A stretch of DNA of 64,000 nucleotides from Vairimorpha necatrix (taxonomy: Eukaryota), in NCBI GenBank assembly GCA_036630325.1, contig CP142734.1, forward strand, positions 248,001-312,000, written 5' to 3'. The notes under the pieces are model-generated. The model was given only the letters and a program-made list of their open reading frames with translations, was not told the origin of the DNA and searched no databases. Below, piece after piece: positions 1,991 to 48,508 of this stretch. Numbering within the stretch: the stretch's first letter is position 1; each line of letters starts with the position of its first letter. A program made the translations under genes and the position numbers.

Positions 1991-4279
1991 GGGGTATAAA
2001 ATATGCGAATATATTTACAAAATTCATTTGAACCAATTAATGACATACATTGTATGTTTTTTGTACATTCTGATAAATCAATGAAAAAACATAACTAAAA
2101 AAGGAAAAATAAAATGTTATAGCTCATATTTTATAAAAAAATATGATACTAGCTATGATTTGAAATTCAATAACATTATATTCTATTCAAATTGATTTTT
2201 CGGTGTTTATATTTATTTTTATTTATAATTTATGAAAATGCATAATGCTGTATTATGTTATGATTATCATTTAAGTGTTATTTATAGCTATGATGATTTC
2301 AAAGAGTTTATTGTAAAACGTTTATCTTGTTAAAAAGAGGATATTTTCTGTTAATTTCTCACATATATCATTATAAGTCTATTAACATTATATGAATAAA
2401 GGGAAATTATTGAGATATTAATCATAATATGGCAACGACCAAATATAATTGTAAATTTGAATTATAATAAGTAAAACGCTCTTATACAATTAAGATTTCT
2501 ACTATTTGAATTTATATGCCAATATAAAACTTTAGAATTGTAAAAATTTGACTACATTGCACAAAAAATATTAATATTGTAGAAGTTTTATTTTTTATAA
2601 TGTTTATAATAATTATTGATGTTTGACTTTGATTTGATATCTAATACGTCCTCAACGTTGTTTTTAATATTACTTTGCATGAGTATTAGAAATTGTTATT
2701 TTAATGATGTGACTAAATTAATCTATGGACACATATAGAGTGCTAAATATTTTTGCGAGATTATTAAAGAAAACATTAAATTGAATTCTGTTAAAATAGT
2801 CTTATTTTTTGCAATACGGAATGAAATAGGAGAATTAGTGAGCATGAAATCTTTATTATATATATTTTTATTATTAGTTTATTGAATGGTGCGTTTCGTG
2901 TTATAGTTCGTTCTATTATCAAATAATAGTAAGTGTTAGTTAAAACCAAATATTTTAAGTGTAAAATACATAGTATAATTAATGATTCATATGTAACGGA
3001 CAGGTTATATAGATCAAAAATTAGGTTAAGAAAAAATAAAAGGAATACAGCTTGAAATAAAGGCCGTTTTTACATACTTAATATATTTATATTGTAAAAT
3101 ACAACCATAATTGTAATTTACACGGATTATAAAGTTTAATTTCGTCAGCTTCAATTTAACTAGTTTATTTCAAATTCTTTTACTTTTGATAAAAAACATA
3201 ATTTGGTAAACCATGGCTATGTTCGATCGCCCATAACACTTTCAAGGAGATTTGAGAATAGTAAACTGAAGATTCCCAATCGGTAAAAGAAGGCTCTCAA
3301 ACATTGAATATTCATTAGTTGATTTTATCCACACCAATATGGGCATGATTACCTTTTATTAATGTAGTCAAAAAAGATTTGTACATTTTAACACAAACAC
3401 AATTATGAAACGAAGGAAAAAGATAGAATAGTATTCTCTTGCATTCTAGGAGTCCAAAAAATACTTGAATTTTTTTCATTTATAAAATTTGTATTTTTAG
3501 TTGATTTAAAAGAATCTTTACTATAAAAAAAAAATTTTTTGGTCGAGTCGCATATGAATTAAAAATACACATTGTAAAAAATTTAAGATAAAAAGAGTTC
3601 GACAATGAAATGTAACAGTTTGATATCTAGCACTAAGATTATCCTGTAATCATTCTATTGTAGATACTCATCCAATATATCTGCTTTAAAATATTTACTA
3701 CAAATAATAAATAAATATTTTACTCTTCTAAAAATATTATGAAAGGAGATAAGCTGCTTTTTTTACAATAAACAATGAAAAACGTAATTAAATAAAACTA
3801 AAATCTTGGAAAAAATATTAGTTTACGCAATTAAAGAGAATTTCGGGTTTTTTTATAATTTGAACTGCTAAAAATATCTTAAAACCAACAAATTTTTTTT
3901 ATTAAAACACTCTTTGCTTTTAATTTTTTTAAAAAAGATATATATATTACTAAAATACAAATTTAGCAAGAACGACAGAAACAAGCGGAGGTTAAATAAT
4001 ATATGACGAAGCACGCAGTTTTGAAAAGAAACCGATTCAAATTATTGTCAAAATATGGTGCGATATATGAAAATGTTTGCTTAAGAAAGAATAAAATATT
4101 TAAAAAAAAATAGTTGTTATTTATTGTTTTTTTAATGTTAAATAATCATAAAATTTTAGATTATGAATATAAAAATGAATAACATTTAAAAGATGAGGAG
4201 GGTTTGTGATTTAATACTGGTCTAATTATAAAATTTTAGGCAAAAATTTGCATTTATTGTGACTAAGGTCAAAGCAAGA

Positions 4280-5810: not shown

Positions 5811-6743
5811 GATTAAATATTGCACAATAAAGAATATTGAATAAATGAATCTTAATAAAACATATTTAATGACGAATTTAAGAAGAATTATAAAAAGCTA
5901 TGACATTTTAGTATAAGAATTTTTTTGAATAAGTCAATTTAATAGATCAAAAACAAATACGTTGTTAATAGAAACATAAGACTAATGAGAGTATGATAGA
6001 GTTAAATCATATTTTCAATACTATTTTATTAATTGAAAAATTAAAATGAGTGATTAAAATACACAAAAGTCATCCATATAACATTTTTGACAGTTTTGTG
6101 ATGTACGTACAATAATAAAAAATTAATATTGCCTTTGAAGATAATTATGCGAATTAAACGGTATATTCTATGAATGGACTTCAATGATAAATAAAACTAG
6201 AATAATTTTAAAAATTAGACTAACATAATTAGAATTTCATTAAATACTGGCAATTCATAAATAATAAAAATCGGTTTTGTTTACAGTTATGATGGATTAT
6301 GTAAACCAATATCAACTGAGGATTCTAAACTATTTCCCCCTCCAGACACATAGTCTCTCTATCGTAAACATCTCTTCTTTATCTCTTTCAAATCATAATA
6401 CCTTTTTAAAGATTTTACAATATAAAAAATTCACAATATATGAATCATTTTTCCTTCAAGCTACGATCCTTCTGAGGCCTGTGAACCTTCCCCGTCTGCT
6501 TTCATTCGTGTACCTAAATTTTCTCTGCTAGCGATTATTGTTTCTTGGCCTTCTCTAAATGTCTCTCTGTGTCTTCTCTTAATTCGGCTAGCAGATTCCC
6601 CATTTAATTATTTCCAATTACAACTTCAGCACTTTGATCTAACTAAGCTTCCATTAGCGTACATTTTATTGCTGTATGTAGAGTTTTATTATATACTTTA
6701 GATTTTCTTTCTATGTTCTCAGCAATTTTTTATTCCTTTAACT

Positions 6744-10600: not shown

Positions 10601-10727
10601 TGTTATTAGAAAACATGGGGTTATTTATTTACTGAATTTATAGTCCAAATGTCACATGTCAAATATCTTGTGTCAAATGTCATTTGATAAATAATTGTAT
10701 GTCATTTGACATGTTATACTTTCAACA
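10601..10727 (-). repeat. 3' LTR of element A
   Basis: TG...CA direct repeat of 14078-14204, directly preceded by the PPT on the minus strand. Confidence 0.95.
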
Positions 10728-10739
10728 CTCTTCCCCCTT

Positions 10740-13022
10740 TCAAAAAATATACTTCCTTAAGTTTCTTAAACTCGAGGTTATTATTTTTCCATTTGCTAAC
10801 TTTATTTCGGCCGATCCAAATTTCTTAGAAATAACAGTTCCGCTAAAAGTATAATCCGCTTCCAATTTATGTTCTTTCCCGATTGGGTGATGATAGAGTA
10901 TTTTATCCCCCACTTGAATTTCCTCTTGAGTCCGACTCCTTTTACCTTTACAATAACTTGTTTTGTAACGTTTTATATAATACCTTTGCTGCTTTGACAT
11001 TCTTTTATTTGATCACATTTCCCGAGGTGAGCAGCCTATCCCGCGGTGAAATGAGTTAAGGTACCCGTCCAAAGTCTTACCTATGCACTTTACCCAGTCT
11101 ATCCTTCCAAAATTCGATACTTTTTTCAGCTTCTCTACGTACGTCCTATTGAATCTCTCTACTAATCCCGTAGTCGTCGGCGAGTAAGGAGCTCCTAGCC
11201 TCCATTCGATCTTGTATTTCATAGATAATTCTTTTATGCTATGATTTACGAATTCCTTTCCATTATCCGAAATAATAATCTCTGGGACTCCGTACTTTGA
11301 AATGGTTTCTTCGATTCTTCTTCGCGTTTCGCCTGCATCCTTTGATCGTAACGGAATTACGTTTGCGACCTTTGAAAAGTGGTCGATTATCGTTAATATA
11401 TACCTATATCCCCGTTGGCTTGGGGGAGTGGACCTACTATGTCTATCTCCCATATCTCGTTTGGTTTAGATGAATTAACTGAAATAATACTTTTTCTTAT
11501 ATAGTATGATCCCATTTGCTGACATTGGAGACATCTTCTTATTACGTTTTCCACTTCCCTATCTAAATTTTTTATTTTCGTTCCTCGTAAAGCGTACATC
11601 ATTGCTTTCTTTGATCCGTGGGCTAAGCGATCGTGCGTTTCTTGCACCAACTCTGTCACATTCCTTTGTTCCTTTACGTTGTTAATTGTTTCGCCCATCA
11701 TTCTACTCAGGCAGTCACTTGGGTTATTCTCCCTTTTGATATGCTCGATCTCCATATCGTATTCCTGCAAGTATAACGCCCACCTTGCAAACTTTGTTTT
11801 CATGTTTGTACTCTTAAACAGATACTTTATGGCACTATGGTCTGTTTTAAGCAGAAAATTTTTTCCTATGAGATAGTGTCTATAATGATCGATTGCTTTA
11901 ATCACCGCCAGTAACTCTTTCTCGGTTGTCGAATAGTTTTTTTTCTGCCTTTGAATGAACTTTCGAATAATAACTTATGACTCTTTCTTTTCCTTCCTGT
12001 ATCTGTGATAATATTGCTCCTGATCCAAGGTCTGAAGCATCAGTAGTTAAAATAAATCTTTCGTTTAAATTCGGCATTGCAAGTATTTGAGTTTGTCCAA
12101 TGTTTTCTTTTAACCCTTCGATAGCTTTTACGTATTTATTTTCGATGACAATCTTTTTCCAGTCAACGTCTGAGTTCTTCTTTATAAGCCCATATAGATA
12201 TGCCGTCTCTTTTGATAAGTTTTTTATAAATTTACTGCAATAATTGATTGTGCCTAAGAACGATTCTAACTCTTTTCTATTCTGGGGGATTTTAAGTTCT
12301 TAAATAGCCTTTATTCTTTCCGGATCAATCCTTACTCCTCTGTGATCCACTACATGGCCTAATATGTGAATTTGTCTCTTTTCATATTCGCATTTTTTCT
12401 CGTTAAGTTTCAATCCCGCCAAGCTAATTAGTTCTAACACTTTCCTGACATGTTCCTTGCGTTCTTCTAACGATTTGCTGTATATAATAACATCGTCCAT
12501 ATAAGCCATAGCAAATTTTCCTAAATATGGTCTCATCATTCTGTTCATCGTTCTTTGGAACGTTGCCGGTGCGTTTACAAGACCAAAGGGCATGTATAAG
12601 AATTCATAAAGTTCGCCTCCGCATGCAAACGCAGTCTTTTCAATATCCTTTATATTCATTTTGATTTGGTGGTATCCCGAGAGCGCATCAAGTTTAGTAA
12701 AAAAGGTAGCTCCATGCAGGGAATCCAATATTTCATCTACTCGGGGCATAGGGTAAGAGTCTTTGATGGTAATTTCATTGAGTTTTCTGTAATCAACGCA
12801 TAGTCAATAGTCACCACTTTTTTTCTTTGCAAGTACTACTGGGCTCCGCCACGGGCTATTAGATTCCCTTATAATGCCCTCTCTTAAGTACTGTTGGACA
12901 ATCTTCTTTGCTTCTTTTTCTGCTTCCAGCCCTAGTCTGTAACAGGCACTTGTTATTGGAGGAAGGTCTTGTGTGATAATTTTATGTTCTCCAAGCTTAT
13001 TATTTTCCGTATTCTCTTCTGT
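10740..13022 (-). pseudogene. pol of element A (RT, RNase H, integrase), disrupted
   Basis: RT motifs SPWRSP, LDALSGYHQ, MPFGL, YMDD. RNase H TDAS and TDHSA. Integrase zinc finger (H..H..CLQC) plus IDHFSK, SDNGKEF, ERFNRT. In-frame stops and frameshifts split it into several ORFs. Confidence 0.9.
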
Positions 13023-14093
13023 TCATTCGATTTGGCAATCTTTACCAAAATTAATTTTAACATTGTGTTTTCTGAGGAAGTTAAGTCCAATGATCATGTT
13101 AGAAGTTATATCATTCGTTACCACAAAGTTTTCTTCGAAAACTTTCTCTCCCATCATAAACTTTTGTTTTATCACACCTAAAGTCTTGATTTCTGTACCA
13201 TTGGCTGAAATGAGGTTTCTTGCCGGTTCTAATGCCTTATTCCTTACAAAATTTCCTTTAATTAAATTTACACATGCTCCAGAGTCGACTAGTGCTTGTA
13301 TTTTAAAATGTCCGATATTAACTAAGACTGTAAGGTCTTTAGTACACGTGTCCCCAAGGGATCGAACACAATTATAGAAATTAGGAGTTTTATTGTCGTC
13401 AAGTACGTCATTATCTTCAAGAGGACTTCCAATTTCCCTAATTATCCTACTATTTCGTTCCCGTTTTTGCTTTTGGCAGTCTTTCTTAAAATGTCCCTTT
13501 CTACCGCAGTACCAGCATTCCTTATTATTTTGCACTTTGCAAACTTCCATCTGATTCTCCTGAGGCCTTTCTGGTAACATCCTGTAAGATCTCGACCTAC
13601 TGCTGCAATCCAATCCTTCGCATGCATTATAAATATAGTTCCAAGTGACTTCCGCCGGAGTATTCATGAGTAACATGCCTCCAATATCTTCGGGCAGTCC
13701 ATTCAATACGAAAGCAATTAACACATTGTCTGGGAGAGCAGCTTTCATTGCTAGCCGCTTCATTTGATCAAGATAAAGTAAGAATGACCCTTCCGTGTAT
13801 AAACATCTTGCCAGATTTTTTATGTGTCCGACGCTGCTTAGTCTTCCTTTAAATCTTCTTAAGAATGCCTCACATAGCTCTTCAAATCCACAGCTCCATG
13901 GCACTGATTCAGTCCAAATTGTTGCTTCCCCCGCTAAGTGGTCTCTAAAGAAAAAGATTTTCCCTTCTTCACCACAATTGGCTATCGTTGTCCATCCCCT
14001 TACGTATGCCAAAAAGGCATCGGGATCATCCTCTCTGCTATTTCTAAAAGTTTTTTTGTTTGCCGTTGTCGCCAAACTGTTATTAGAAAACAT
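13023..14093 (-). CDS. Gag-protease portion of the element A polyprotein
   Basis: Zinc knuckle CWYCGRKGHFKKDC and aspartic protease LVDSGA. The ATG has CCCC context inside the 5' LTR. The frame continues into RT after a TGA. Confidence 0.9.
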   Translation of the reverse strand: MFSNNSLATTANKKTFRNSREDDPDAFLAYVRGWTTIANCGEEGKIFFFRDHLAGEATIWTESVPWSCGFEELCEAFLRRFKGRLSSVGHIKNLARCLYTEGSFLLYLDQMKRLAMKAALPDNVLIAFVLNGLPEDIGGMLLMNTPAEVTWNYIYNACEGLDCSSRSRSYRMLPERPQENQMEVCKVQNNKECWYCGRKGHFKKDCQKQKRERNSRIIREIGSPLEDNDVLDDNKTPNFYNCVRSLGDTCTKDLTVLVNIGHFKIQALVDSGACVNLIKGNFVRNKALEPARNLISANGTEIKTLGVIKQKFMMGEKVFEENFVVTNDITSNMIIGLNFLRKHNVKINFGKDCQIE

Positions 14094-14204
14094 GGGGTTA
14101 TTTATTTACTAAATTTATAGTCCAAATGTCACATGTCAAATATCTTGTGTCGAATGTCATTTGATAAATAATTGTATGTCATTTGACATGTTATACTTAT
14201 AACA
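14078..14204 (-). repeat. 5' LTR of element A (contains the gag ATG at 14093)
   Basis: Direct repeat of 10601-10727, followed on the minus strand by GTT and the PBS. Confidence 0.95.
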
Positions 14205-16943: not shown

Positions 16944-17169
16944 AATAAAGCGGTTCTTTTTAAATTTTTTTTAATCATTTCAGTTCTTCATTTGTTTAAT
17001 TAGAAAAGTTAATTGACTAATACAAAGAAAAAAGGTCTAAAAGTTAACTTTATGTTACAGTAAGTTATTAATTTCTTTTGTTTTGGATTATACAACAAAG
17101 CAATCTTAAAATACAATTTTGATGATAAACATTTTAGGACTTTTTTTTATTTGAAAATAGCATACGAAA

Positions 17170-17238
17170 TGTGATGTATATGACTACATAAAATAGGCAG
17201 ATATCATAAATATCATCTGTCATATATTTTCAAAGACA
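17170..17238 (+). repeat. Probable 69-bp solo LTR related to the element B family
   Basis: Begins TGTGATGTATA and ends AAAGACA, like the element B LTR. Flanks CGAAA and CGTAA give a 4/5 TSD. Confidence 0.5.
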
Positions 17239-17252
17239 CGTAAAACATATTA

Positions 17253-20200
17253 TGTGATATATTTGTATAATTTCTATCCCCCATTATTATAAATAAAGAC
17301 ATGGGGCGATACCGAATCGTCAGTTTACAAGTGTGGACTGTGGTCTAGAGGCCAAAAAGTTATTAAAAGAAGTTAGAAGAATAATGTATAGGTTGGAGAT
17401 GGAGGAAATAGAAATCAGTTTGTGGAAGCAGAGAATATTTATGGAAGGAAGTGAAGAAATAAAAAATTTCATGGTAGAAAGAATTAGTAAAGAGGACGAA
17501 TATTATAAAATAATTGAGAAATTAGAGGAGGAAATATGTAGAGAAGAAAGAACTAAAAAAGAAGAAGAAAATAGGAAAGAACTTATGGAGGTCATAGCTG
17601 AGAATGTTAGAGAAACTGTGAGAAAAGAAATTCAAGAGAAAGATTTAGTTTTAAGGAATACAGTACAAGAAATAAGAAATAATAGGAATTGTTTTAATTG
17701 TGGTAAATTTGGCCATATGGCTAGGAACTGCTATGTAGGAAGGAACAATAATCAGGAAAATAATAAAAAGTTTAATAAGTACTTAAATTTAGACGAAAAC
17801 CAAAGTTGTAGTAGCAGTAATGATAATAAAGAATATAAACCAAGTGGAAAGACAAAACGAGTTAAGTTGAAGGAATGTAATAATAGTGATAGAAGACATA
17901 AAGAAAGAATATATGCGAACAATAAAGAGACGAAAAGAAGATTACTGAAGAAGGCATTTACGTTGGAAGATCTCAAAGCGGAATATGAAGAAGTTTTTAA
18001 ACAAGGAGATGAGGTTATAAGTTATTGTACATTAGAGAAGTGTAAGATAGATACTCCAGAGGGTAAGAAGATAGTCAGAAAGAGACAGACGATCCCACAG
18101 GCTTTGATCAAACAGACTGAGGAATATATTAATGATTTAGAAAATAGAAAAATTATAAGAAGATCGTCTTCAGAATGGCGAAACCCAATAAGAGCGATAC
18201 TTAAACCAAGTGGTGAAGTAAGAGTAGTTAGTAATTTTATAGGGTTGAATGATTTAGTCGAGAAAAACCCGTATGAGCTAACGAATATGAGAGAAATAAT
18301 AAGAGCTACGCAAGGGTCGATAATATTTACTGTTGTTGATTGCAAAGAAGCATTTTACCATTTTGAAATTGAAGAAAAAGATAAACATAAGACGGCGTTT
18401 GAATTTAATAAAAAAGTTTACGAATGGAATAGTATGGTGATGGGATACAAAAATTCCCCACAGATACTACAGAGAACGATGAATATGATTTTTGAAGATT
18501 TGCGGGGAAATGGTGTTGAGGTATACATGGACGATATAGTAATACATGCCAACAATAAACGTAAACACGATGAATTAGTAATAGAGGTTATAGAAAGAAT
18601 TAAGAAAATAAAATGAAATTAAATATTGGGAAAATACAGTTTAGACAAGCGGAAGTAAAATTATTAGGTGTGACGCTGAATGGAATAGACATGACGGCCG
18701 ACGAAATAAAGAAAAATGAAGCCTTGGAGTATCCGGATCCAAAAACTTTGACGGAATTGAGGAGGTTTCTAGGATTGACTGGATGGTTCAGACCATTTAT
18801 AAAAGATTATGCCGGGCTGACGTTGAAAATGACAGATAGTTTGAAGAAAAATGGCAATTCGTGGAAATTTACGGAAGAGATGAAAGAGGAATTTACTAAA
18901 ATGAAAAATGTGTTAAGAAATATGGGAAGACTAAGATTACCGGACTATAATAAGGAGTTCATACTAAGAACAGACGCTAGCAATTTGAGATTGGGTGCGG
19001 TGTTACTTCAGAAGAATGAGAATGGGGAATGGGTTGCTATACAATGGGCATCTAAAAAGCTAACACCTACCGAAATAAGATATGGAATATCAGAAAAGGA
19101 AATGCTTGCGATATATTGGGGAATTGATAAATTTAAATACGAGTTAAGAGGTAGGAAATTCAAGATAGAAACGGATCACAAAGCACTGGTGGAGATAAGA
19201 AATAAACCGTTTTTCAATAATAACAGAATAAATCGTTTAATCGAGAAGATACAGGAATATGATTTTATCGTTGAATATAAAAAACCTGATGAGATGGTGG
19301 TAGCAGATGCGTTGAGTCGAATAAATATGGAAGAGGATATTAAAGAAATGAAAAAAAAAAGCGAACAATCAAGCAAACAGAAGGTAAATGGAAAGCACAT
19401 GTTTCTTCCGAGAATGGAAAGCAATATTGGCAATTTGACTCAGGACGTAAAGTTGAAATACCACCTGAGAATATAAGGAGACAATTAATCCAAGAATATC
19501 ATGAAAAAGTAGGCCACAGATGCATGACAAGTGTTTATTATGCAATGAGAGAAGAATACTATTGGCCAGGAGTAAAGAAAGAAGTAAACGAGGTTATAAA
19601 ACAGTGTCAGAAATGTCAGATATATAACAGGAAAAATATGGGTGGTTGTGAATTTGTAGATACGTCGAGATACTTAGAGAAGGTTGCATTAGATTTGATA
19701 GACTTTAGAAATGAGAAGAAATATGTTTTAGTTGCTATCGATTATTTTACACGTAGAGTATGGGGAGTAGTTATAAATAACAAGTCAAGTAATAATGTTG
19801 TTGGATTTTTGAAAAGATTATGTGAGCAAGGGAAGAAACCAGAAGAAATTATTACAGATAACGGGAAAGAGTTTATTAACGTGGAATTTAGGAAATTTTG
19901 TAGAGATCTCGATATAATACACCGACAAGTAAGTATAGAAGCGCATAGAAGTAACGGAAGAGTAGAGCGTGTTATAGGAACTTTGAGAGAAAGTATTTTA
20001 AAGTCGGATGCGAAAACTTTTGAAGGTAAAGTGTATAAAAGTATCGATATATATAATCAGAGCTATCATACGGGAATAAAATGTACACCATTAGAAGCGA
20101 CTAAGATTTAACTGGAGACGTAATGCTTGAAAATAGCCCTATAAGGAAATATTGTAATAGGTTTGGAAAGGGAAAGATCGAAAAATTTAGTAAAGGTCAA

Positions 20201-20466
20201 TTGGTAAGAATAGCTAAACGAGAAAATTTGGCAGGTGTTAATAAGTATGAAAAAGGAAGATTTTTGGATACAGGAAAAATTGTTGAAAAGTGTGGAAAGG
20301 ATTCTTATATTGTAAAACTTAGTAATGGTAGGCTTGTGAAGAAGAGACATTATGATCTGAAGGGTATGCTTGGGGTAGATGTGAAAATTAGATGAGACTA
20401 ACCGTCTTGAGGGGGGATGTGATATATTTGTATAATTTCTATCCCCCATTATGATAAATAAAGACA
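17253..20466 (+). mobile_element. Full-length miniature Ty3/gypsy element B (3214 bp, 49-bp LTRs, no visible protease)
   Basis: LTRs at 17253-17301 and 20418-20466 differ at 1 position. TSD TATTA on both sides. PBS-like TGGGGCGATACCG at 17302. PPT GAGGGGGGA before the 3' LTR. ORFs carry gag zinc knuckle, RT (YMDD), RNase H and integrase. Confidence 0.95.
17301..20395 (+). pseudogene. gag-pol polyprotein of element B, split by small frameshifts
   Basis: ORF 17333-18616 has CFNCGKFGHMARNC, SSSEWRNP, YMDD. ORF 18613-19476 has TDAS, TDHKAL, VADALSR. ORF 19524-20111 has WPG..CQKC, LDLID, TDNGKEF, SNGRVER. ORF 20123-20395 is the C-terminal tail. Confidence 0.9.
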
Positions 20467-21415
20467 TATTATACCGCTAGTAAAGAAGGTTTTACAAACA
20501 AATAATTTGTGGTATTACAAATACCACAAATTATTTGCTATTTAATTCAAGTACTAATATACACAATGATTCCAAACCTAACATCTCCTCCTCAAAATGG
20601 TTAGTCTTGCATTCTTAATTTCTTTGAGATCATAATGTCTTTTCGAAATAATTTTCCTCCTTGACCGCTATTAACAATAGATCATTTTCAGAAATTTCTT
20701 TAATAAAGTCTTCTCTTTCGAATATACTACTATCCTGTTTACTAACATTGCCAAAACCTTCTCTTTTCGTATTCTACTGGCTGACCTTCTGTAAACTTTT
20801 CTTTCGCACTTTTTATAAATTTACCTCCATAGTCTTCATCACTTAGTTTTCAACTTTACAATATATTTTTTCCTTTCGTTAACAGCCCTGTAGGTGTACA
20901 CTGAAGTCTATTATGATACGTCCTATAATATATCAACATCTTAATATTAACTTCAGCCCCATCGTCCTCCCCCCTGCTATAACACGCTTTCCCACATCGT
21001 TCTTATCGCCCCTTCAACTGGCCGTTCATCTACGAGCTTCACACTAACCTTCTTATGTTAAATCTGGGTTATCAAATAACAATTTTCAAAGTCTTCACAA
21101 AAAAACCTTGAAATTATCGCTTATAATCTATTAATGAAGATCTAGTATTAAACCAATACTCCATTTTACCAATAATCATCTTTGTACTTTTATCTTTATA
21201 TCACTAACATACCAATACCGAGTAAAGTAGTCAATTTATATCAAAATCACTTTAATAGGTTCGCCAATCTCCATGAAATCAATAACGAGTTTCTCGACTT
21301 TATAACTCGATGTAAGATTTTAAAACCACTTTCGTTCTTTCTATTGCCCATCATAATCACCATACATGCTCTAATTTATCATTTCACTTGATATTTTATT
21401 TCAGGCCGACAATAA

Positions 21416-22631
21416 GGCGCAACGGTCTGAGCCCGGACTTTTTTCTCTATAAAGGGGGACTCTTAGAGAGAACGAAAAATAATAAAAATAAAAGCATTTA
21501 ATTTTAATTAAAAAAAATTGATAATTTCAATGAAAAAGTCTCTGCAACTTTTTATCTTTTTTTATATTGCACATCTTCTTCTCCATTTAAATTCCTCCAA
21601 AAAATTTGGTCGGTCTTTCTTTGATTTCTTTTCTAGCTATTATATCACATTTAAGACGTGACCAGACTCCCTTTATTGAGTTTGTGATCTCTGATGCTTT
21701 TTTTAAAACCGTCATCGTGGACTAAACGCGATGATTAGAGTTGATGGATTCAACCGCTTCGGGGTAGGATTTGTGCCTATTAGTTTTACAAATAGTATCT
21801 TTTTTTATATTTTTTGAAAACACCGAATCATCGTCTGGATAGTGAAGTTAGGCACTATCTCGATTCTCCATTCTAACAATCGCTCGTCTATTGTACCAAT
21901 CAACCGTGTGCTGTTTTTAACTGTGCCATATCTTTCCGATGGTGGATTGACAAATTTCCCTTTTACTATAACCTTTTCATCGTTTTGTGTCACTTCTTCA
22001 ACTTCTATTTTTTTAGTGCTTGTTGTTTTATTTTTTAGTGCTTGTTGTTTTATTTTCAATGCTTCGTATATATTTTTTTAAGCCTTGAAGACACTGAAAG
22101 CTGTCATACGGGAATTTTTGTTTAAGTTCTGTGTAGACTGCGTTTCAGTAAATAAATACAGAATATACAAATAATTATTTATAGATATTCGAGGACTAAA
22201 AAATGAAGTTTAATCAAAAACTCCCATTGATGTTCCACATCCTGTCTTTTCCTATACTTAAAAAGGTGGCAGTCTATGTACAAATCATCCGGAGTTAATG
22301 CCATTATACCAGGAAAGTACATACATTCTATGGGTGTTTTTAGTAGATTTTCATCCCCTAGCCAACATATTGCCTCATGTGGGTCTTGGAAGTTTTTTGA
22401 CCTACTGTCAAGAGGCTCTAGACATAACATAAGGGTAGAATATTTTGAAAAAAATCATCTAAAAAACAAAAAAGTTTATAGCTCAAAAATTGTTAATCCA
22501 AATGAAATTTATTCAATTCTGTTAAATTTAGATTCTTGGGGATATGAGAGTAAAAACATTTCCCCACTTTACGGTCTGTGCCCGGATTCAGTACGTAAAA
22601 ATAGGGAAGGTCCGGGCTCGCCTGTTGCGCC
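21416..22631 (-). mobile_element. Merlin (IS1016/ISXO2-like) DNA transposon, degenerate transposase
   Basis: Imperfect TIRs GGCGCAACGGTCTGAGCCCGGAC and GGCGCAACAGGCGAGCCCGGAC. Perfect 8-bp TSD GACAATAA at 21408-21415 and 22632-22639. Transposase remnants QNDEKVIVKGK and TNSIKGVWSRLK. Confidence 0.9.
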
Positions 22632-22953
22632 GACAATAATAATATTTCTTTAGCTTATAAAATGTTCCTTTTAACCCCCTGTCGTTAAACCCATAATTTA
22701 TTCCTTTACAATTTTGATCTCTCTTGCATTTTTTGAATTTCCATTTGTAACCAATTATCAAATTCCAAATACTCCTTATTATCTCTGATCACTGTATGTT
22801 TTTCAATTTTCCCTTTCATTTATGGCGTAGCTTGTTCTTTAATTATAAATTCATTTTTATCTTCGTTATCTTGATATTGTCTACTAAAAGCATCCGCATT
22901 TGACATTAATTCTTCTTTTAACTTACGTTGGAAACATACTCCTGGATCCTTTC

Positions 22954-23256
22954 TGACGTAATCCAGAGGAGCTACCTCTGGATAAATAATGTTCTAAAAA
23001 ATTAATAGTTTTATTATTGGTTTTATAGCCTTGTTGGGCATCTGCATTGGGAGTCTGGTCCCTGGCTTTAGAGCCCTTCCTTGGTCTTGCGTTCCAAGGG
23101 AATTGTTCGTTATTCTTTTTATTCATCCGGTAGGGGTCAGGGCAAAAAAGAAATAAATATTTGATTTTTGGAATGGACCGGTCGAATGGTCTATTTTCCA
23201 AAAAGGGTAATTTGATTAATTTTAAATAATTAATTTGTGGTATTTGTAATACCACA
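22954..23256. mobile_element. 303-bp solo LTR-like insertion
   Basis: TG...CA termini with a perfect 5-bp TSD CTTTC at 22949-22953 and 23257-23261. It interrupts the RNase H region of element C. Confidence 0.85.
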
Positions 23257-25809
23257 CTTTCAATTTATTTGTTTTCTTTGTTAATATTTAAGAAGGGTTG
23301 TTCCTGATTTCGTCTGCGGCTTTATGGTCTGTCATTTGAGAATTTCCTTCCTCTCAATTCGTATGAAAACTTTTCTATGCGCCATACAACCGCTAACATC
23401 TCCTTTTCCATTATTGCATATCTTCTATTATTGTGTCGATTTTTTCGAGGCACATTGTAGGCATCCACATCCATATTTATTCTTCTGATAAAGCACTTTA
23501 AGGAATCATTTGACATTTTCTTACATCTTTTGCACTTTTAGATGTTCTTGTAAAACATTTTACCTTAGTAAATATTATCTTTGCCTCCGATGGTTTTAAA
23601 AACCTGCAAATTATTCAACTTTAATTCTAAATGTAAGCTCTAATTTTCTCTTTCCAAATTATATTTGATCTTTCACACTCTTTAACACATGTTCATTCAT
23701 CTTACTAACATAATAAAACTTCTTTTTTTTTGTTATATTAAAATTGCTCCTCATATCCTTTCTGTCTATGCAATTCCTGGAAATATAGTCTTTATTTATC
23801 CCGTAGAACTTTTTCAAACACTTGTTTTTCTTCAACCCTTAATTTTAATACAATACTGACCCGCTTTTGTGACAGTTTTTCTTTAACATCCAAACGAAAT
23901 TTACTCTTATTTATAATTTCGGTGTTTCATATTTATTTTACAATTTCATTTCGATACATACAACTTTTTGCTTCATATCTCATCTTACCACATACAAAAT
24001 ACTACTTTTATTCGCTTCTTTTATAACAATGATTATCCGGAGCTGCTAACATCATGGCCTGTTATCTATTAATTTCATTTATTAGATCTTTTAACATTCC
24101 CCCAACTGACTCTTTAACTCTTTTCTTCCCTATTTATTCTTTCTCATCTTCTTCTTAAACTATATTTCCGATTTTCTATATAATTTCATTCCCATTTTTT
24201 ATTTTCTTAACAGATCCTGCAGTTCGATACTTGCTTGTCAGAATCCCTGCTTCAAAGACTTTCCTTCCACTTCTTCCTCCATTCTAGTCATCACTCCTAT
24301 TCTTTTGGCCCTTTTTTAGGTTCTGGCTCGCTGCCACGAGTCTCACTTGTCGTCCCACTCCTTTTGTGTTCGCCATGTTAGTACTTAATTCATTTGGGTT
24401 TAAACCCAACATATAATATGACTTTAGATTTTATTTCATAAATAGAAAAGTATTAATACATGTCAAATAATATTAATATCTTTTCTTATTATCTTAAATA
24501 TCTTTTCCTTCAATATATGAACTTTGAAATTAAAAACTAGATCGGATTTGTTCTTTATTATTCCTCAAATAATTTTTTTAGTAAAATAAATTTTTTATAT
24601 TATGATACGAAGCATAAAAGTATTTTTTAATAAATATGTATCTAAATTTTTAAATAAATCTTTTATAAGTTTATTTTACTTCAACAAGAAAAGAACCCGT
24701 AGTAAACCTAGGTCCTACGAAATTTATTTCTGATTTGATTGTTTTTTATAAAAAACAAAAATTTTAGGAAAAAACGGCTTCCAATTCAGAAGACAATTCT
24801 TAAAATTCAAACACAAAGACATACTCATTTTTCAATATTGCTAAATTTCTATTTTTATATCTAATCAACATTTTAATTTAAGTTCGACAAGTCTGCCAAC
24901 CATTTGACAAAATTTGTTATTTATAAATAAGGTTGAAAAGGTGTATTAAAAAACTTTTTATGCAAGGCCGACCTCACTTTTTTACATAAAAAACGATATG
25001 GCCGAAAAAAATTAAAATTATCTTTTCACGATAAAAACTATAAACAAGCTCTAAAACATGCTAATATTAACATCAACAAAAAAGTACTCTTGTTAATCTG
25101 AAGAATAAAATTATAATTAAGACTTAAGACGTTATAACGATTTTTGCGAACATTTACAACCTCTTGGATGTGAAAATAAGACTAAAAATCAAGTAATGAA
25201 ATATGGTACATTTCTGTCCGACAAGTTTAATCAATAAATTTGAACAATAAGAGCAAATCTATAAAAAATACCAACAGCAAAATACAATAAAAATTAATAC
25301 TTTGTAATTTAAACGAATTCAAAGGAAATTTTAAAGAGAAATGGAGTTGTTTTGAATGACAAACACAAAATGACAGATTAAATAGTATAGAAACATCTTA
25401 TTTAAAAAAAAAAAAGCATAAGTTTATCTATTTAAAGGATATTTTAATGTAAATCACATCAAAACAATGAAACGATAATATTGTCCTATAATCATGTCCT
25501 ATCAATGATAACATATAAGAATTTTAATATCTTTTAGCCATAAGAATTATTATAAACACATTTACATAATGTGTTGAACATAATTAGTTCCATAATTTCG
25601 GAAGAGCTGTATTTTATGCATAAACCTATATATTAAACTGATTCTATCCAAATCTTAATTCAAATTTTTTTTTGATACTTTGACCGAACAAATATTCTTA
25701 TAATTAAAATGATAAGCAAATAAAAATACCAAGGTTAAAATTGATATGTTTGAATATATCCTAAAAACATCATATAAAAAATAAAAAGAAAATACTAAAC
25801 GATATTTAT

Positions 25810-27486
25810 TGTGGCGCGCGAGCGTTGACCCCCTAAAAAACGTAAAAAAAATAAGAAATAAAAAGAACACAAAAAAATTTTAAAATTGAATTTTAATTAT
25901 AGTTTTTTAAGCCTTGACATAGGGAAAATTTGAGTTCCTTCTTCAGTTTCACATTTCACTCTGTTGTTTGAGAGAATTTCTATAATCTTAACTTCTTTAG
26001 AAAAAAATGAAGATAGTTTTAGTTTTTTTTGTTTTGATATTATTATCAAAATCTTTACCTACAGCGACTTTGTCCAATTTTAAAAGTATATTTTGAGATA
26101 TGAACCAATGAATGACGATCCACTCTTGCAAGGTAATTTATATCAACTGAACCAGTTTCAGTTTGTTCTTTAAAAACACTATTCGACAAATCTCTTTTAT
26201 TTACTGTCTCTAGTATAAACTCAAATTCTTTTAAGCTATCATCTGAAGACTCGTTCTCATCTTGCGTATAAACAGAATTAAATCCTGGTATTTTTAAGAA
26301 TAAATTAAAAGGAACCTGCTTTGTCGCACTATGTTTGGCCAAATTGTAGTTGTAAGCTACTTTATTTAGATGTTTCAGCCATTCCTTTTCTTCTTCAGTT
26401 TTAGAATTGTCAACTGCTAACAAACTTTATTTAAATACATGTTTTTGTATTGTTCGCGTTAAAGTTTGATTAAACCATTCTATTTGCCCGTTTGATTGTG
26501 GGTGACGGGCCTACTATGTTTTTGAACAATAAAAAAGTCTGAACAAAGTTTCCTTATATGGGAATTGCAGAATTACTTTCTATTATCGCTTTGAAGGATC
26601 TTGGGTGGACCTGTCATATTGTAAAATAAAAATTTAATTTTTTTTAGTAACCTCGTCACCCGCTTTACTTTTCAATGGAAAGGCCCAGGCAAACTTAGAA
26701 TACACATATATTATTGTTAAAATCCAACAATACCATCGTTAAACCTTTTATAGCGTGTCATATCGATTAAATCGATCATAAATCGTTCCACCGGTTTAGA
26801 GGCCGTAATATGTACTTGCCGCTCTAAATTTTTTAACGGTTGTGATTGTCCACATGTGATGCATTCGGAAACGATTTTTCTTATAATGTCCCTAGGAATT
26901 TTTAAAAAAACCTTATTGCATGATGCTTCGAATCGGTTAACGCCCCTGTGATGAAGCTGATGGAAGGCTCTACATTCCACTTAGATGGCCTCAAGCTGTT
27001 CACTATGAAAAACCTTGAGGTGGTTCTCATTAGCCTCGTCCCTTAAATATAGCGCCCCATCTATAAGAAGGTAATTACCAGCTTTTTGTTTCAACCGTTT
27101 TTTTGTTGCTTTTCTAAAACAACGTCATTGTCCCTGCCTAGTAAAACTAATTTTAAATTACTGTATTCACTAGCATTTCTAAGAGGAAGAATCATTTTTA
27201 AGAGGATAAAAAAAATCTTTTTATTTATCAATTGTCATTATGTAAGTATTTTTGTATTTTTTATTTTTTTTAATTTAGTATGCCATGGTCGAGTGGTATG
27301 CTTGCTTGATTTTTTCACGTGGGCCGCGGGTTCGAATCCAGTTTAATGCGTTTATTTTTTTAAAAAAGATTTAACTTAGACAGGGCTTTTTAAAGGAGGG
27401 GTCAATGCCTGGCGGGATTGAAGTTTCATTGAGGATCAATGCTTGCACAAGCTGGAAATCCTAGGGGTCAACGCTCGCGCGCCACA
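25810..27486 (-). mobile_element. Ginger2-like (KRBA2/SCAND3-type integrase) DNA transposon, pseudogenised
   Basis: Perfect 23-bp TIRs TGTGGCGCGCGAGCGTTGACCCC at 25810-25832 and 27464-27486. Integrase fragments HQLHHRG..CITC, ERFMIDLIDM, AWAFPLKSK, GPPKILQSDN, HPQSNGQIE, YNLAKHSAT. No RT or gag. Confidence 0.85.
27278..27350 (+). promoter_or_regulatory. tRNA-like Pol III A/B box module inside the Ginger-like element
   Basis: A box TGGTCGAGTGG at 27286-27296, perfect B box GGTTCGAATCC at 27329-27339, downstream T-run. The cloverleaf is poorly conserved. Confidence 0.6.
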
Positions 27487-29456
27487 ATAATTATACAGCC
27501 CCAACAAAGATTGTAATTTCTTCTTACTTTTAGGAATTGGTAACTGTTGAATGCTCCTAACTCTTTCTTCGTCCACACTTATTCCCTCTTTTGCTAGAAC
27601 AAGAGCTAAAATTTTTAATTCGGTCTTATTAAATTTGCATTTCTCCTTATTAAGTTTAAGCCCTACGACTTGAGCTTTTCTAATACCATTTTAACATCTC
27701 TCTTGTGATCTTCTTGTGTTTTACTATAAATTAATATATCATCCATACATACTACCACAAACTTAAACAAAAATTCCCTCAATATGTTATTCATCACCCG
27801 CTGAAATGTAGCTGGACCATTTCAAGTCCAAATGTCATTTTAGTAAATTCAAATAACCCTTCTCTACAGGCGAAGACTGTTTTTTCTATATTACATGGCA
27901 CCATATCAATTTGATGATATCCCGATTCAGCGTTCAATTTTGTAAAGAACGTAGCACCTTCTAATGCATTTATGAATTCTTCTACTCGAGGCGTTGGATA
28001 TGCGTCTCTAATCATCGCATCAATTAACCTTCGATAATCCACACATAATCTGTGGTCTCCATTATTTTTGGGACTATAATTTTTGTTGCTTCTTTATAAG
28101 CTTACACTAGATCTAATTATTCCACGTTTCAGATATTTTTTCACTATTTAAGACGCAATATCCTCTTTTGCTTCCATTACTTATACAACCTAGATAGTAT
28201 TGAGTTATCATCCTTTGTGATAATTTTATGATATCCTTTGGCTTTCCCTTTGCCAAAAGTCCCGATCTAATTTCCATTTTGTTATTTCCAAATTTTAAAT
28301 TTATCTTATACATGTCGAGTAACCCTTGTTCTATAATGCAGGGAGTTGATATCCCTAGTAATAATAAATTTATCTTCAAATATCATTCCGTTAATTTTTA
28401 TTTTAATTAATGTTTCTTCAATGGTCCTTATTTTCGATTCATTGGGTGCCTAAGTTGTTGCTTAGAACGATTAACAACGGTTTTATTTAGCAAAAGCTAA
28501 GGTCTTATTAGATTTATATCAGCACCAGTATCTATGAGCACTTTAAATTATATTTCCGAATCATTTAGTGACGCTTCTTTGAGCGTAGTCCTAGTATCCT
28601 TAAACTTTGCAAAAGGGTAATTATAAATAAATTCATCTACATCCACCCTTTTATTTTCATCTTACTCTTGACTTTTTTTGACTTTGCTAATATCTCTACA
28701 GTAGCTATTAAATTTACATCGTGCTACTATATGGCCTTTCTTTCCGCAAATAAAACATCTATTTTCCTTCTTCCTTTTGGAAGTCCAATTCTTTCTATAG
28801 TCGTTATTGTAGCTAATCGCTTTTACATCCACATAACCTCCATGCGAAATTTCAGTATAACGTGTATCATCCACTTCCATAACATTCCTGGAGGACTATA
28901 TAAGTACTTCAAGATAACATGTCTTCTTGTTTATTAATATCGAATTTGCTAATTGGTTTAGAATTCCTTTTAGCACAAAGGAGATCAATACGCCTTCCGG
29001 AACATTATCCCTGCGCGCCAATCCAGCCATCTTGTCTAGATAGTTGATGGCCGATCCGCCATGATATTGAAGGGCGGACAGTTTATCTATACTCACTTTC
29101 ATCGCCATGGGACCAACAAATCTTTCTCGAAACAGAAATTTCAATCTTTCCAGTGAAATACCAATTGGCTGCGCTATTAACCAATCCCACGCCTCTTCCT
29201 TTATCGATATTCTGAGCAAAAGTGTAAGTTTACTCTCACTGTGTTCCATCAGCCTCCCCACATCCTGCAAGTCCTCCAAGAACTGCAGTATATCATCCTT
29301 CTCTTCATTTCTAAAAATGAGAAAGTTCCTGACGTTGTCGCCAAATTTTTGGGATGAAAACATGGGTTTAATTATTATAAAATATTTAAAAAAGCACAGC
29401 GTCAAATATATCAAAACAATGACACGATATATTTGACATGTGTAGCACTTCCTACA
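27487..29456 (-). mobile_element. 3'-truncated Ty3/gypsy element D (5' LTR, PBS, gag, PR, RT)
   Basis: CCC-ATG at 29363 (MFSSQKFGDNVR). PBS TGGCGACAACGTCAGG at 29343-29328. Zinc knuckle CFICGKKGHIVARC, protease VLIDTGAD ~28530, RT DYRRL, SGYHQ, YMDD. It ends at the Ginger TIR. Confidence 0.85.
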
Positions 29457-31323
29457 CTATAGACAATAGAAAATCAAATAGTTTATAGAAATTATTAGAA
29501 AAAATTTTATACTACATGGAATCGAGTTTTATAGTAACTAATTTAAATTTTTTTGTTATTATAAAAGCTATTTTCTTACGCGTAAAACTATTATATAATC
29601 TAAGAGTTTGTTAAAAAATCAACAAATTTATGTGTTAATATTTTTGAGGGAAAGTGTTAGTTAGAATAAAAAACTCCAGGATCGCTCCAAAACAAAGACC
29701 TTAAAAACTTTTTTTTAAAAGATTTACGTAGATATAAAATTTGAAGATGTTTTATTCATTCCTTTTTTCCGCTTCGACTTTTCAAAAAAGAAGCTTTTAA
29801 AATAATAGTTTATTGGCTAGAGTAAACATTTAAGACTCTTATAATATTAAGAAATGCATTGTAGACTTTTTTCATAATAAATCATTTGTGTCTTATGCTA
29901 AAAAAATTCCGTTCCTTTTTGGTTTGTGGTATTTGTTACCAAATTACAAAATAGAATCATAGCGATTTTTACCACAAAAAGATTCTTTTTTGTCTAGAAA
30001 CTTATTATATTGACGCAATTATTTATTGAAGAGCGTAAAATTTTCCGTGATCTATTTTATTTCTATATATTACATTGACAAAATACTCTTGGAAATTTAC
30101 TCTAAGTATTATAGCAAGTGAGATGGTATAATTAAAGTTTTTATTAGTTATATGTAACAGCAATCCATTTCAAATATTCAAATTGCATTATAAAAGTAAA
30201 TTAACTACAGAGATAAATTTATGTGTACTAAATGTGTAAGTTTGCCAATTGAAGTAAATACTTTAAACCATTGTTTTATATATAAAAAAGCAGTATTTTT
30301 GATTCTTTTTATTTGAATGCAAGATACTATAATATAAAACTGATCGCAATATATTAATTCCCTGATATTGAATCACGGACAGAAGCTTTTATTAGGTATA
30401 TATATATATATAAGACGTTATAGTGGTTTTTTAAACAAACTACTAATATATTCGGCATCTCTCAACACTCTACGTAATATTTAGAAAATTAGAAAACCAT
30501 AAAGAACTGTGGCAATGTCTTATGGGTTTATGGATAATAGAAATAAGATTATAAGAAAATATTATGGTCGATGAAAAAAAAATAATACTTTTTGAGGATT
30601 CTTCAAAATTATCTGGAAAAAATCAAAGTTAATACTGACTTTCAAATCATACGTAATTTTAAAAAATTTGTGTTTATCGTTTTTTATATAGATTGTCAAA
30701 AGGTTTATAATAATGTAATTGAATTCTACTATAAACTTACTTTTATGTTTTTAAGTTTAAAAATAGATAAACTTAGTAGAAAAATATTATTGGAATTTTG
30801 TTGTTACGTCGTGTGTTATAAGTGATTTAAAAGGAGGGTTGGTAGACAATATATTATCGTAATAGGAGTAAAGGACACAAAATCCATTTTCAAAAATATC
30901 ATATGGATATATGGCAACAAGTTTATCTTGGCTAAAACCACTAGAATTTTATATTTAAAATATGATTTTTGGCATTATTTTTTTATAAGGGAGCTAGATC
31001 AAAAGTATATAAGACGATGTTTAAACAATGCACAAAGACTAAAAATTTTGACCTAGGTGTATTAAATTTTTTGCATTATCAATTTGAAAAAAATCGATTT
31101 ATTAATATAAAGAACAAATTTAGTTTCTACAATTAAAAACAACATTAAAATGCTTTAAAATGAACACTTTCTATAACTAACGAGAGGAAATTAACAAATA
31201 AAATTTATATATCAAAAGTAGCCTGACAATTTTGTTACCTGATAATCCTTAATTATGATGAGTTTCAATATATCATTTAAAAACTCCTTTTTAATATACA
31301 AAATAAAAATTTATTTTTGGGGC

Positions 31324-38603: not shown

Positions 38604-40058
38604 ATCTCTGTTCATAAAAAGCGGGGGTAAAATATAATTTTAAAATATTAATAACATCGCACTGGTTAAGAAGAAAGCTCGTCTATAATTAATTTAAATT
38701 GTGAGACATGTCTTTTATTAATCTTATTTCTCATAATAATATCATATGAATTATCACCTGCTTTACTAACAATTACTTTTCTAGCTTTTAATCTGGGCTG
38801 TTCTTTAGTCGGCCCTATTTACTTTTTAATTGTAACAATAGTATCTTTTTTAAATGTTTTCTATTTATTTGTTAGAGTTTTCCTCATTGAATTTGTTTTT
38901 TTTCTTTAATTGAATTCCTCAACTTTCGATGATTTTCTTTTTTTGCGCTTCTTCTGTGGTCATATCTATACCAGTGTGATATACTCATTACTTACCTTTG
39001 CCGCTTTAGTACCTTTATTGATAACAGGCTGTCTTTTTCTTTTTTTTATATCAAGTCTTCCAACGTTCTGTTAAATTTTTTAACCCGTCCATTTGATTGA
39101 TAAGGAACGGGGAGGCATAATGCAGTATAAATTATCTGTTCTCTGGCAAAGTCTTTGATTTTATTGCTCAGATTTAATCTAGACTGATCTAAAATTAGAA
39201 TTTGGATTATTAATTCTTTATGTAGTTCTTTCACGAAATTAAGAACATTACTATATTGTCTACCATATATTATCTTGGCAAAACCTTTTCTTGTGAAGTA
39301 ATTGATCCCAGATATTGTATATCGATTTTATACGGGTCCTATTATGTCTATGGCTACTTTTTCTCCTACTTCTTGGGCTGTTACAAAAACAAATTTTTTT
39401 TCTTTTGAGAATTATATTGTTTACATATAACTATAACACATTTGAAATCTCTTTTTTTTATTTTACTCATATTTTTTTAATTAGTACCTGTGAAACTAGT
39501 TATGTATAATCGTCTTTTCATCTCTTTGTAGACATTCTTCATAAATCTTCCTTATAAATTTTTTTTTGTTCACTTTTCTAATTTCCACGTAATTTACTTC
39601 TAAAGACCTACTCTTCTCAATCTCCTTTTCCGAATATATGTTCGTTTTCTACATAGACAATCCACGTTTATCATCTCATTTCCTTTTTTATATTTGATGC
39701 TAACTTCAAAGACGCTTAACCTATCGCATCATCTTTAAATTCGTTAGCATGCAATATCTTCCTTATTAATAATCTCTAAGACTTTGTGATCAATAATTAC
39801 ATCCACAGGTGTTCCATACACAAAATATTTGAAATGTTCAAGTCCCCATAAGATGCTAAGAAATTCTTTTATTATATGCTGTACTTATTCTTAAGCTCTT
39901 TTAATCTTCTTAAATCAAAGGATATTGGGTATTTCCGTTCTCATATGCTTGGCAAATAAGAAATCATGGGCTCATTCCCCATATTCCCCACCATTTTTTT
40001 CAAGATCTCTGTTCATAAAAATTAGAGGTAAACTATAAATATTTAAATAATAAGAACA
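38604..40058 (-). mobile_element. Degenerate Ty3/gypsy remnant with short terminal repeats and a tRNA-Ala-type PBS
   Basis: Direct repeats ATCTCTGTTCATAAAAA..GGTAAA.TATAA at ~38604 and ~40005. Integrase fragment QSNGRVKKFNRTL. PBS TGGTGGGGAATATGGGG at 39993-39977. Confidence 0.65.
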
Positions 40059-48426: not shown

Positions 48427-48508
48427 GGCAATGTGGCCGAGTGGTTAAGGCGTCAGTCTAGAAAACTGATAGGTTAATCCTGCACAGGTTCAAATTCTGT
48501 CGTTGTCG
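48427..48508 (+). tRNA. tRNA-Ser (anticodon AGA)
   Basis: Acceptor GGCAATG/CGTTGTC plus discriminator G, D arm TGGCCGAGTGGTTAAGGC, anticodon arm TCAGT-CTAGAAA-ACTGA, long variable arm, T loop GTTCAAAT, downstream T-run. Confidence 0.95.

Follow-up and report, generated by a model that had tools for sequence, protein, structure and literature searches.

A Ty3/gypsy retrotransposon bounded by 49-bp long terminal repeats in a microsporidian genome

Ends of the element and its empty site

The window analyzed here is a 64,000-nucleotide stretch of contig CP142734.1 from Vairimorpha necatrix, crowded with transposon remains, poor in long host open reading frames (ORFs) and with a regional G+C content of 27.5%. 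Within it lies a 3,214-bp element whose structure is well established and which is an unusual variant of the Ty3/gypsy retrotransposon: it is bounded by direct long terminal repeats (LTRs) of only 49 bp. The two copies of the 49-mer, TGTGATATATTTGTATAATTTCTATCCCCCATTAT(T/G)ATAAATAAAGACA, start 3,165 bases apart and are 48/49 identical, with T at 17288 and G at 20453 as the sole mismatch; the T is private to the left LTR of this copy, as runs X1 and X2 (see below) have G. The LTRs carry TG..CA termini, reading TGTGATA..AAGACA, near the metavirid consensus TGTTRNR..YNYAACA quoted in PMC3601003. Directly outside both LTRs stands TATTA, a 5-bp target-site duplication. Directly 3' of the left LTR is the TGG-initiated TGGGGCGATACCGAATCG, which resembles a primer-binding site (PBS), and directly 5' of the right LTR is the polypurine tract (PPT) GAGGGGGGA. 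The initial annotation had described the 49-bp end repeats, the limits set by the TATTA duplication, PPT and PBS, and a TATAAT-like box, CCCCC and AATAAA inside the 49 bp, and all of these are borne out.

An AT-rich region filled with transposon remains might yield such a repeat by chance or through faulty assembly. However, in 100 dinucleotide-shuffled versions of the window, the 49-mer never occurred twice at ≤3 mismatches. Moreover, when Logan contigs of four public sequencing runs were aligned to 17100-20650, contigs of three covered the element, and one run showed a precise empty site. We therefore give a chance match or an assembly artefact practically no weight.

The empty site is found in run X2, where a contig of 1,371 nt (depth 231) joins 17244 to 20464, with nine letters that fit either side. 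The 3,219 bases skipped equal the 3,214-bp element plus one TATTA, as expected of a site without the insertion, and because the empty site is exact, the ends of the element are exact and the insertion is polymorphic. The skip is not a splice, since GT..AG occurs in none of the ten possible junction registers. In four further X2 contigs, representing two consensus flanks, the sequence follows the right LTR to its end and departs from the window immediately after 20467/20468; we take these to be other insertions with the same terminal LTR base. The initial annotation had also called the insertion recent. The presence/absence polymorphism agrees with this, whereas a difference of about 1% from the closest copies, found in X1 and X2, and the four −1 frame breaks described below do not; given that difference, "recent" holds only in a relative sense.

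Contig depth in X2 is itself unusual. Summed depth reaches 21,000-59,000 over the 5' gag part (17338-17694) and the 3' integrase tail (20194-20431), compared with 231 in the flank and 36-1,800 elsewhere in the element interior, and GC-rich loose ends occur at 17436, 20238 and 20267-20269. These peaks may come from internally deleted derivatives present in large numbers, from an RNA-type library or from sequence unrelated to the element.

Coding content and frame breaks

Nearly all of the internal 3,116 bp is coding sequence, which specifies gag (with a CCHC zinc knuckle), reverse transcriptase (RT), RNase H and integrase as one polyprotein. This content sets the element apart from the non-autonomous terminal-repeat retrotransposons in miniature (TRIMs) and small LTR retrotransposons (SMARTs), in which the internal region is short and non-coding. 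The window copy is divided into four ORF pieces in frames 2, 1, 0 and 2. Pfam recognizes zf-CCHC (E 4.5e-05) and RVT_1 (E 3.8e-23) in the piece at 17333-18613, RT_RNaseH (E 1.3e-30) at 18613-19473, Integrase_H2C2 (E 3.1e-08) and rve (E 2.8e-16) at 19524-20108, and the integrase C-terminal piece at 20123-20392. The order RT, RNase H, integrase, seen in the Pfam matches along 18197-19925, recurs in 17/17 relatives, which make up alignment A1. For one relative, P0001, the best solved-structure matches are Ty3 Gag-Pol (7q5b, E 3.3e-58) and Ty3 RT (4ol8, E 1.9e-54). We place the element in Ty3/gypsy on the basis of this domain order and of Ty3 as the best solved match. Pfam finds zf-CCHC in the window copy and in 10 of the 17 relatives, and the C-C-H-C columns are invariant in alignment A1; no capsid-domain family was detected by Pfam in the window copy or the 17 relatives. 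Features of the element and of its larger neighbours are listed in Table 1.

Table 1. Positions of the 49-bp-LTR element, its parts and neighbouring elements in the window
Feature	Position	Strand	Evidence or remark
Target-site duplication, left (TATTA)	17248..17252	+	Single copy retained in X2 empty-site contig
5' LTR, 49 bp, TG..CA; TATAAT-like box, CCCCC, AATAAA; private T at 17288	17253..17301	+	
ATG across LTR/PBS junction, Met-Gly/Ala start codon of family	17301..17303	+	tblastn, relatives' N-termini
PBS-like sequence, TGG-initiated, within first codons; G run 17303-17306 is frame break 1	17302..17319	+	
gag-like region, CCHC zinc knuckle at about 17687-17731	17303..18019	+	Pfam zf-CCHC, alignment A1
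Reverse transcriptase and RNase H; frame break 2 in RT at about 18606-18616	18020..19260	+	Pfam, Ty3 structure match
Frame break 3, at and just after A10 run	19346..19383	+	tblastn frame switch
Integrase: H2C2 zinc domain, DDE core, C-terminal domain; frame break 4 at about 20102-20111	19524..20392	+	Pfam
Nucleotide motif GAGACTAACCGTCTT, just 5' of purine tract	20394..20408	+	Similar stretches in L003, L004, L009
Polypurine tract GAGGGGGGA, abuts 3' LTR	20409..20417	+	Tracts also in L003, L004, L009
3' LTR, 49 bp; in-frame ATG 20451-20453, lost from 5' copy	20418..20466	+	
Target-site duplication, right (TATTA)	20467..20471	+	
E2, Ty3/gypsy element, about 3.6 kb	10601-14204	−	LTRs 127-129 bp, 98% identical; duplication CTTGC
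oldB, decayed, E2 family	about 25370-29490	−	Same PBS as E2 at 29333-29343, at its head
oldA, decayed micro-LTR family member	about 20493-24053	−	Tail to tail with main element, about 30-60 bp away

At each of the four −1 breaks, a contig from another run carries one more base than the window does: 257 versus 256 bases at break 1 (X1, over 17273-17528), 578 versus 577 at break 2 (X1), 462 versus 461 at break 3 (X3), and 811 versus 810 at break 4. At break 3, other copies have T at 19355 and G at 19359. The extra base of break 4 lies behind 20102 in both X1 (depth 57.3 of 61.8) and X2 (1652 of 1652). With these breaks and with the upstream ATG lost from its 5' LTR, the window copy looks disabled. 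Alternatively, the breaks may be homopolymer errors of the assembly, since all but one of the four fall within or next to homopolymer runs.

Relatives, shared architecture and neighbouring elements

LTRs usually measure about 100 bp to several kb and are commonly hundreds of bp long, so that 49 bp falls below the usual range. We found 26 relatives by protein similarity, with E values from 1e-106 to 2e-65, after which the next match falls to E 6e-23. The majority of the 26 consist of a single ORF of 1,000-1,052 aa, on contigs of ~3.0-3.2 kb, and their sources include V. necatrix (two), Nosema granulosis (one) and a Clostridium-labelled metagenome-assembled genome (MAG; one). For nine full-length ORFs (1,000-1,019 aa), the longest contig on record exceeds the ORF by just 27-100 nt, which by an indirect argument leaves no room for LTRs of ordinary size.

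We also took twelve loci, L001 to L012, from metagenome and MAG collections. L003 holds a relative of 3,163 bp (52% identity), whose 39-bp LTRs match each other at 38/39 positions, have TG..CA ends and again fall below the usual range; it has its own duplication, TTATA, together with a purine tract and a TGG-initiated PBS, and its 39-bp repeat found two matches in 0/200 shuffles. The two members of the family in which both ends can be read, L003 and the window element, thus both have what we call micro-LTRs. L004 and L009 retain PPT-TGTT.. junctions and L011 an ..ACA-TGG junction; their other ends are missing, and LTR lengths of 38-49 bp at these three loci are suggestions. No readable element ends were present at L001, L002 or L012, L005 and L010 are short internal pieces, and L006 to L008 are distant (28-38% identity). 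Together, the LTRs of L003 and the nine relatives with ≤100 nt outside the ORF uphold the wider micro-LTR lineage that the initial annotation had suggested. As for much longer LTRs in other copies, the only other two-ended member has 39 bp and a target-site duplication of its own.

These relatives also bear on whether the 49-bp repeats are remnants of longer LTRs, truncated in one aberrant copy. The usual size of LTRs lends this idea some appeal, as does E2, a Ty3/gypsy element in the same window with LTRs of 127-129 bp. However, the X2 empty site lacks exactly the element and one 5-bp duplication, the same terminal base is shared by other insertions, L003 combines its 39-bp LTRs with its own duplication, and the nine relatives leave ≤100 nt outside their ORFs. 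We consider truncation very improbable, although less so than chance or artefact, and regard the short LTRs as complete.

Two further searches added little. No relatives of the element were found in a viral contig collection, and a gag-only search of 1.84 billion representatives returned 161 matches at E ≤0.001, only 10 of them at ≤1e-10; judged by matched range, these lie mostly on the zinc-knuckle stretch and provide no useful family census. In public collections, family contigs L009 to L012 have been assigned to bacterial MAGs under the names Clostridium sp. and Turicibacter sp.; they are probably mis-binned eukaryotic contigs.

The relatives show how closely the signals at the ends are packed into the ORF. 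When P0001 was compared with the window by tblastn, its residue 2 began at 17303, so that the initiating Met corresponds to an ATG to which the LTR contributes its final base and the PBS its first two. L003 (MAPS..) and L011 (MATP..) start at the same junction, as do 17 of the 26 relatives, with M[AG]; the other nine are truncated or different at the N-terminus. In ten of the 17, another Met lies in frame 5-6 codons before the junction Met; directly ahead of the junction Met, 10/10 have Tyr, Asp or His (NAC codons), as an LTR ending in ACA would require. The N-terminus of P0004, MINKDMA, resembles the tail of the right LTR in the window, which keeps such an upstream in-frame ATG just after the CCC start motif. 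At the other end, the ORFs of P0015, P0017 and P0018 finish with ETTRLE(E/A/G)GML, which corresponds to a pre-PPT motif (in the window, GAGACTAACCGTCTT) followed by the PPT and the start of the LTR. With the PBS within the first codons and the ORFs of some relatives running into the PPT, the internal region is essentially all coding. The pre-PPT motif, GAGACTA(A/C)CCGTCT, is common to elements with just 40-60% protein identity; besides the window it occurs in L003 (about 3641-3655) and L004 (about 3197-3211), where it is off by one or two bases, and in L009 (about 2699-2712). A hairpin at the motif was considered and rejected, since its z-scores (+0.44, −0.93, −1.69 and −0.62) are no better than those of shuffles.

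Several other elements surround the one described here. E2 shares with it the Ty3/gypsy type and a 5-bp duplication, but differs in its longer LTRs, a detectable protease and a PBS that matches tRNA-Ser, and the two are only about 30% identical in protein. The E2 ORF begins within the 5' LTR, immediately behind AATAAATAACCCC, and continues across the LTR end and on through the PBS; this PBS, TGGCGACAACG, is complementary at 11/11 positions to tRNA-Ser(AGA) (48427-48508) plus CCA. In the decayed element oldB, the LTR tail aligns with the ..AACCC-ATG-TTTTC.. region of E2. The decayed element oldA shares the pre-PPT motif (20587-20607), and its LTR-like similarity (20493-20585 versus 23955-24053) was matched by 13/300 shuffles and the first 62 nt of it by 41/300. 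End alignments of oldB and of a third decayed element, oldC, were uninformative. The proposal in the initial annotation that similar repeats of 36-48 bp bound three decayed neighbours was therefore not confirmed, as E2 has LTRs of 127-129 bp, oldB belongs to the longer-LTR family of E2 and the similarity in oldA does not rise above that of shuffles. Between the main element and oldA, a perfect inverted repeat occupies 20500-20536, with arms of 17 nt and a loop of 3 nt (AAATAATTTGTGGTATT ACA AATACCACAAATTATTT). Short Ty3/gypsy integrase and RNase H fragments lie at 6402-6729 and 39025-39869, both on the minus strand.

Proposed working of the micro-LTR, autonomy and significance

To consider how 49 bp could serve as an LTR, we turned to what is known of microsporidian genes. 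The available text of PMC2685015 describes, for N. ceranae, a T-rich/C-triplet motif ≤15 bp from start codons and a TATA-like peak near −27; that of PMC2803860 gives, for E. cuniculi, 5' untranslated regions (5'UTRs) of <7 nt, CCC just upstream of the start, and AAUAAA as the poly(A) signal. The window LTR is laid out as TATAAT-N6-CCCCC-ATT-ATG (right copy)-ATAAATAAAGACA. Of the 8 ORFs in the window that reach ≥200 aa, 3 have CCC ≤20 nt from the ATG, compared with a background of 0.05, although the sample is small and one of the three is E2. A second layout, with AATAAA upstream of CCC, is seen in L003 and E2.

From the microsporidian start motifs and this layout, we would place U3 at LTR positions 1 to about 30, where it would contain the TATA-like box and the T-rich/CCC start motif. 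Transcription would begin a few bases after CCCCC, leaving an R plus U5 stretch of about 17-25 nt that would contain the upstream in-frame ATG and AATAAA. A tRNA would then prime at the TGG-initiated PBS, the resulting strong-stop DNA of about 20 nt would transfer to the 3' R, the PPT would prime the plus strand, and integrase would insert the TG..CA-ended DNA. The promoter and poly(A) roles so assigned to the 49-bp LTR are putative. Self-priming of the Tf1 type was examined by eye and set aside: pairing of the window PBS with LTR ..TATCCCCCA requires a bulge, and L003 and L011 have no such match. A scan for bacterial-type promoters and terminators was likewise discarded as uninformative for a eukaryote.

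Taking these observations together, we conclude that the locus very probably holds a polymorphic insertion of a miniature Ty3/gypsy-type (Metaviridae) LTR retrotransposon with complete 49-bp LTRs, in a microsporidian host of the Nosema/Vairimorpha clade, and that the whole family is built alike. As to the host, an adjacent ABC transporter is 69% identical to its counterpart in Vairimorpha necatrix and 46% to that in V. ceranae. Several points count against this conclusion. That run X2 is DNA is only a guess, and its depth is very uneven along the element. The members with two readable ends number two, and the arguments from contig excess and from N-termini are indirect. The only tRNA gene of the window, Ser(AGA), does not pair with the PBS-like sequence of the element. 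The predicted start site, poly(A) site and length of R rest on sequence motifs. The window copy as assembled cannot encode the polyprotein. Finally, and with respect to autonomy, none of RVP, RVP_2, gag-asp_proteas and Asp_protease was found in the window copy or, at E ≤1, in any of the 17 relatives.

The protease result raises the possibility that the micro-LTR family is non-autonomous, having lost its protease and perhaps further functions and being mobilized in trans by protease-bearing Ty3/gypsy families that share its genome, such as E2, or having its polyprotein cut by a host protease. In line with this, the linker between zinc knuckle and RT (17732-18019 in the window) comprises only about 90-100 poorly conserved residues in alignment A1 and contains no conserved D-T/S-G column. 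Furthermore, E2 served as a positive control, scoring 22.2 bits for RVP (cutoff 20.7) and 27.5 bits for gag-asp_proteas, so that the profile search is able to see a microsporidian protease. On the other hand, long intact ORFs for gag, RT, RNase H and integrase are maintained across many sources. The LTRs also differ from those of E2, the PBS has no match to the tRNA-Ser that fits the E2 PBS, and protein identity to E2 is low; together with the intact ORFs of the family, these differences make packaging in trans by E2 unlikely. Overall, we judge non-autonomy to be unlikely, though it deserves to be taken seriously, and the apparent absence of a protease raises the question of how the polyprotein functions.

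Comparison with known elements shows which of these features are unusual. Ty3 of Saccharomyces cerevisiae is about 5.4 kb long, with 340-bp LTRs, separate GAG3 and POL3 frames and a protease; its LTRs end in TG..CA, its target duplication is 5 bp, and it has both a tRNA-type PBS and a PPT. The element described here resembles Ty3 in its RT-RNase H-integrase order, TG..CA ends, 5-bp duplication, PPT and (putative) PBS. Unlike Ty3, it is 3.2 kb long and has 49-bp LTRs, a polyprotein that its family encodes in a single frame, no detectable protease, and a PBS and start codon that overlap the LTR junction. Among microsporidia, the Nbr elements of Nosema bombycis are reportedly of the Ty3/gypsy type (Xu et al. 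2006). The available text of Parisot et al. 2014 (PMC4202319) describes microsporidia-specific Ty3/gypsy groups that typically encode one gag-pol polyprotein. Our relatives resemble these groups, being single ORFs of about 1,000-1,050 aa, some of them from Vairimorpha and Nosema, whereas the window copy is in four frames. Consensus_retroA of Anncaliia algerae differs from the window element in having terminal repeats of well over 100 bases, as far as the accessible part of the PMC4202319 supplement goes.

The closest parallels in LTR length come from plants. According to the available text of Gao et al. 2012 (PMC3281118), the grass SMART FRetro129 measures 292 bp, is non-coding and has 85-bp LTRs, and FRetro64 is a 5.2-kb copia element with LTRs of 76 and 90 bp. 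Both resemble the window element in their very short LTRs, TGT..ACA ends and 5-bp duplication, but the window LTRs are about half as long and flank a coding gypsy-type element. Our literature search, whose coverage excluded Xu et al. 2006 and the tables of Parisot 2014, returned no LTRs of 40-50 bp, none of <76 bp, and no LTR lengths for Nosema or Vairimorpha. The novelty of 40-50-bp LTRs depends on the gap in that coverage left by Xu et al. 2006. The finding describes a working LTR size far below the usual range, the shortest otherwise met in the literature searched being 76-90 bp (PMC3281118, in its available text). It would also link small LTRs to two microsporidian traits, minimal promoters and the near-absence of 5'UTRs.

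It is tempting to go further and to propose that no coding LTR retrotransposon lineage described so far is more compact than this one, with elements of 3.0-3.2 kb, LTRs of 39-49 bp that hold a microsporidian minimal promoter, start codon and poly(A) signal, an R plus U5 of about 20 nt, PBS and PPT in or edging a single ORF, and no retropepsin. We advance this broader proposal only tentatively, as one that may well prove too strong, yet with slightly more confidence than non-autonomy. If the family transposes on its own, LTR retrotransposition would need neither a long R nor an element-encoded protease, and standard finders, with their 100-bp minimum, would systematically overlook a whole class of elements in compact genomes.

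These elements also matter for how microsporidian genomes are annotated. Finders with a 100-bp minimum, such as LTRharvest as run with -minlenltr 100 in the LTR_retriever preprint (10.1101/137141), would not report elements with LTRs of 39-49 bp. In N. muscidifuracis, 58.8% of repeats are unclassified (PMC10133504), and missed micro-LTR elements could feed such large unclassified fractions in Nosema genomes. As the insertion is polymorphic between samples, micro-LTR elements could also serve as strain markers.

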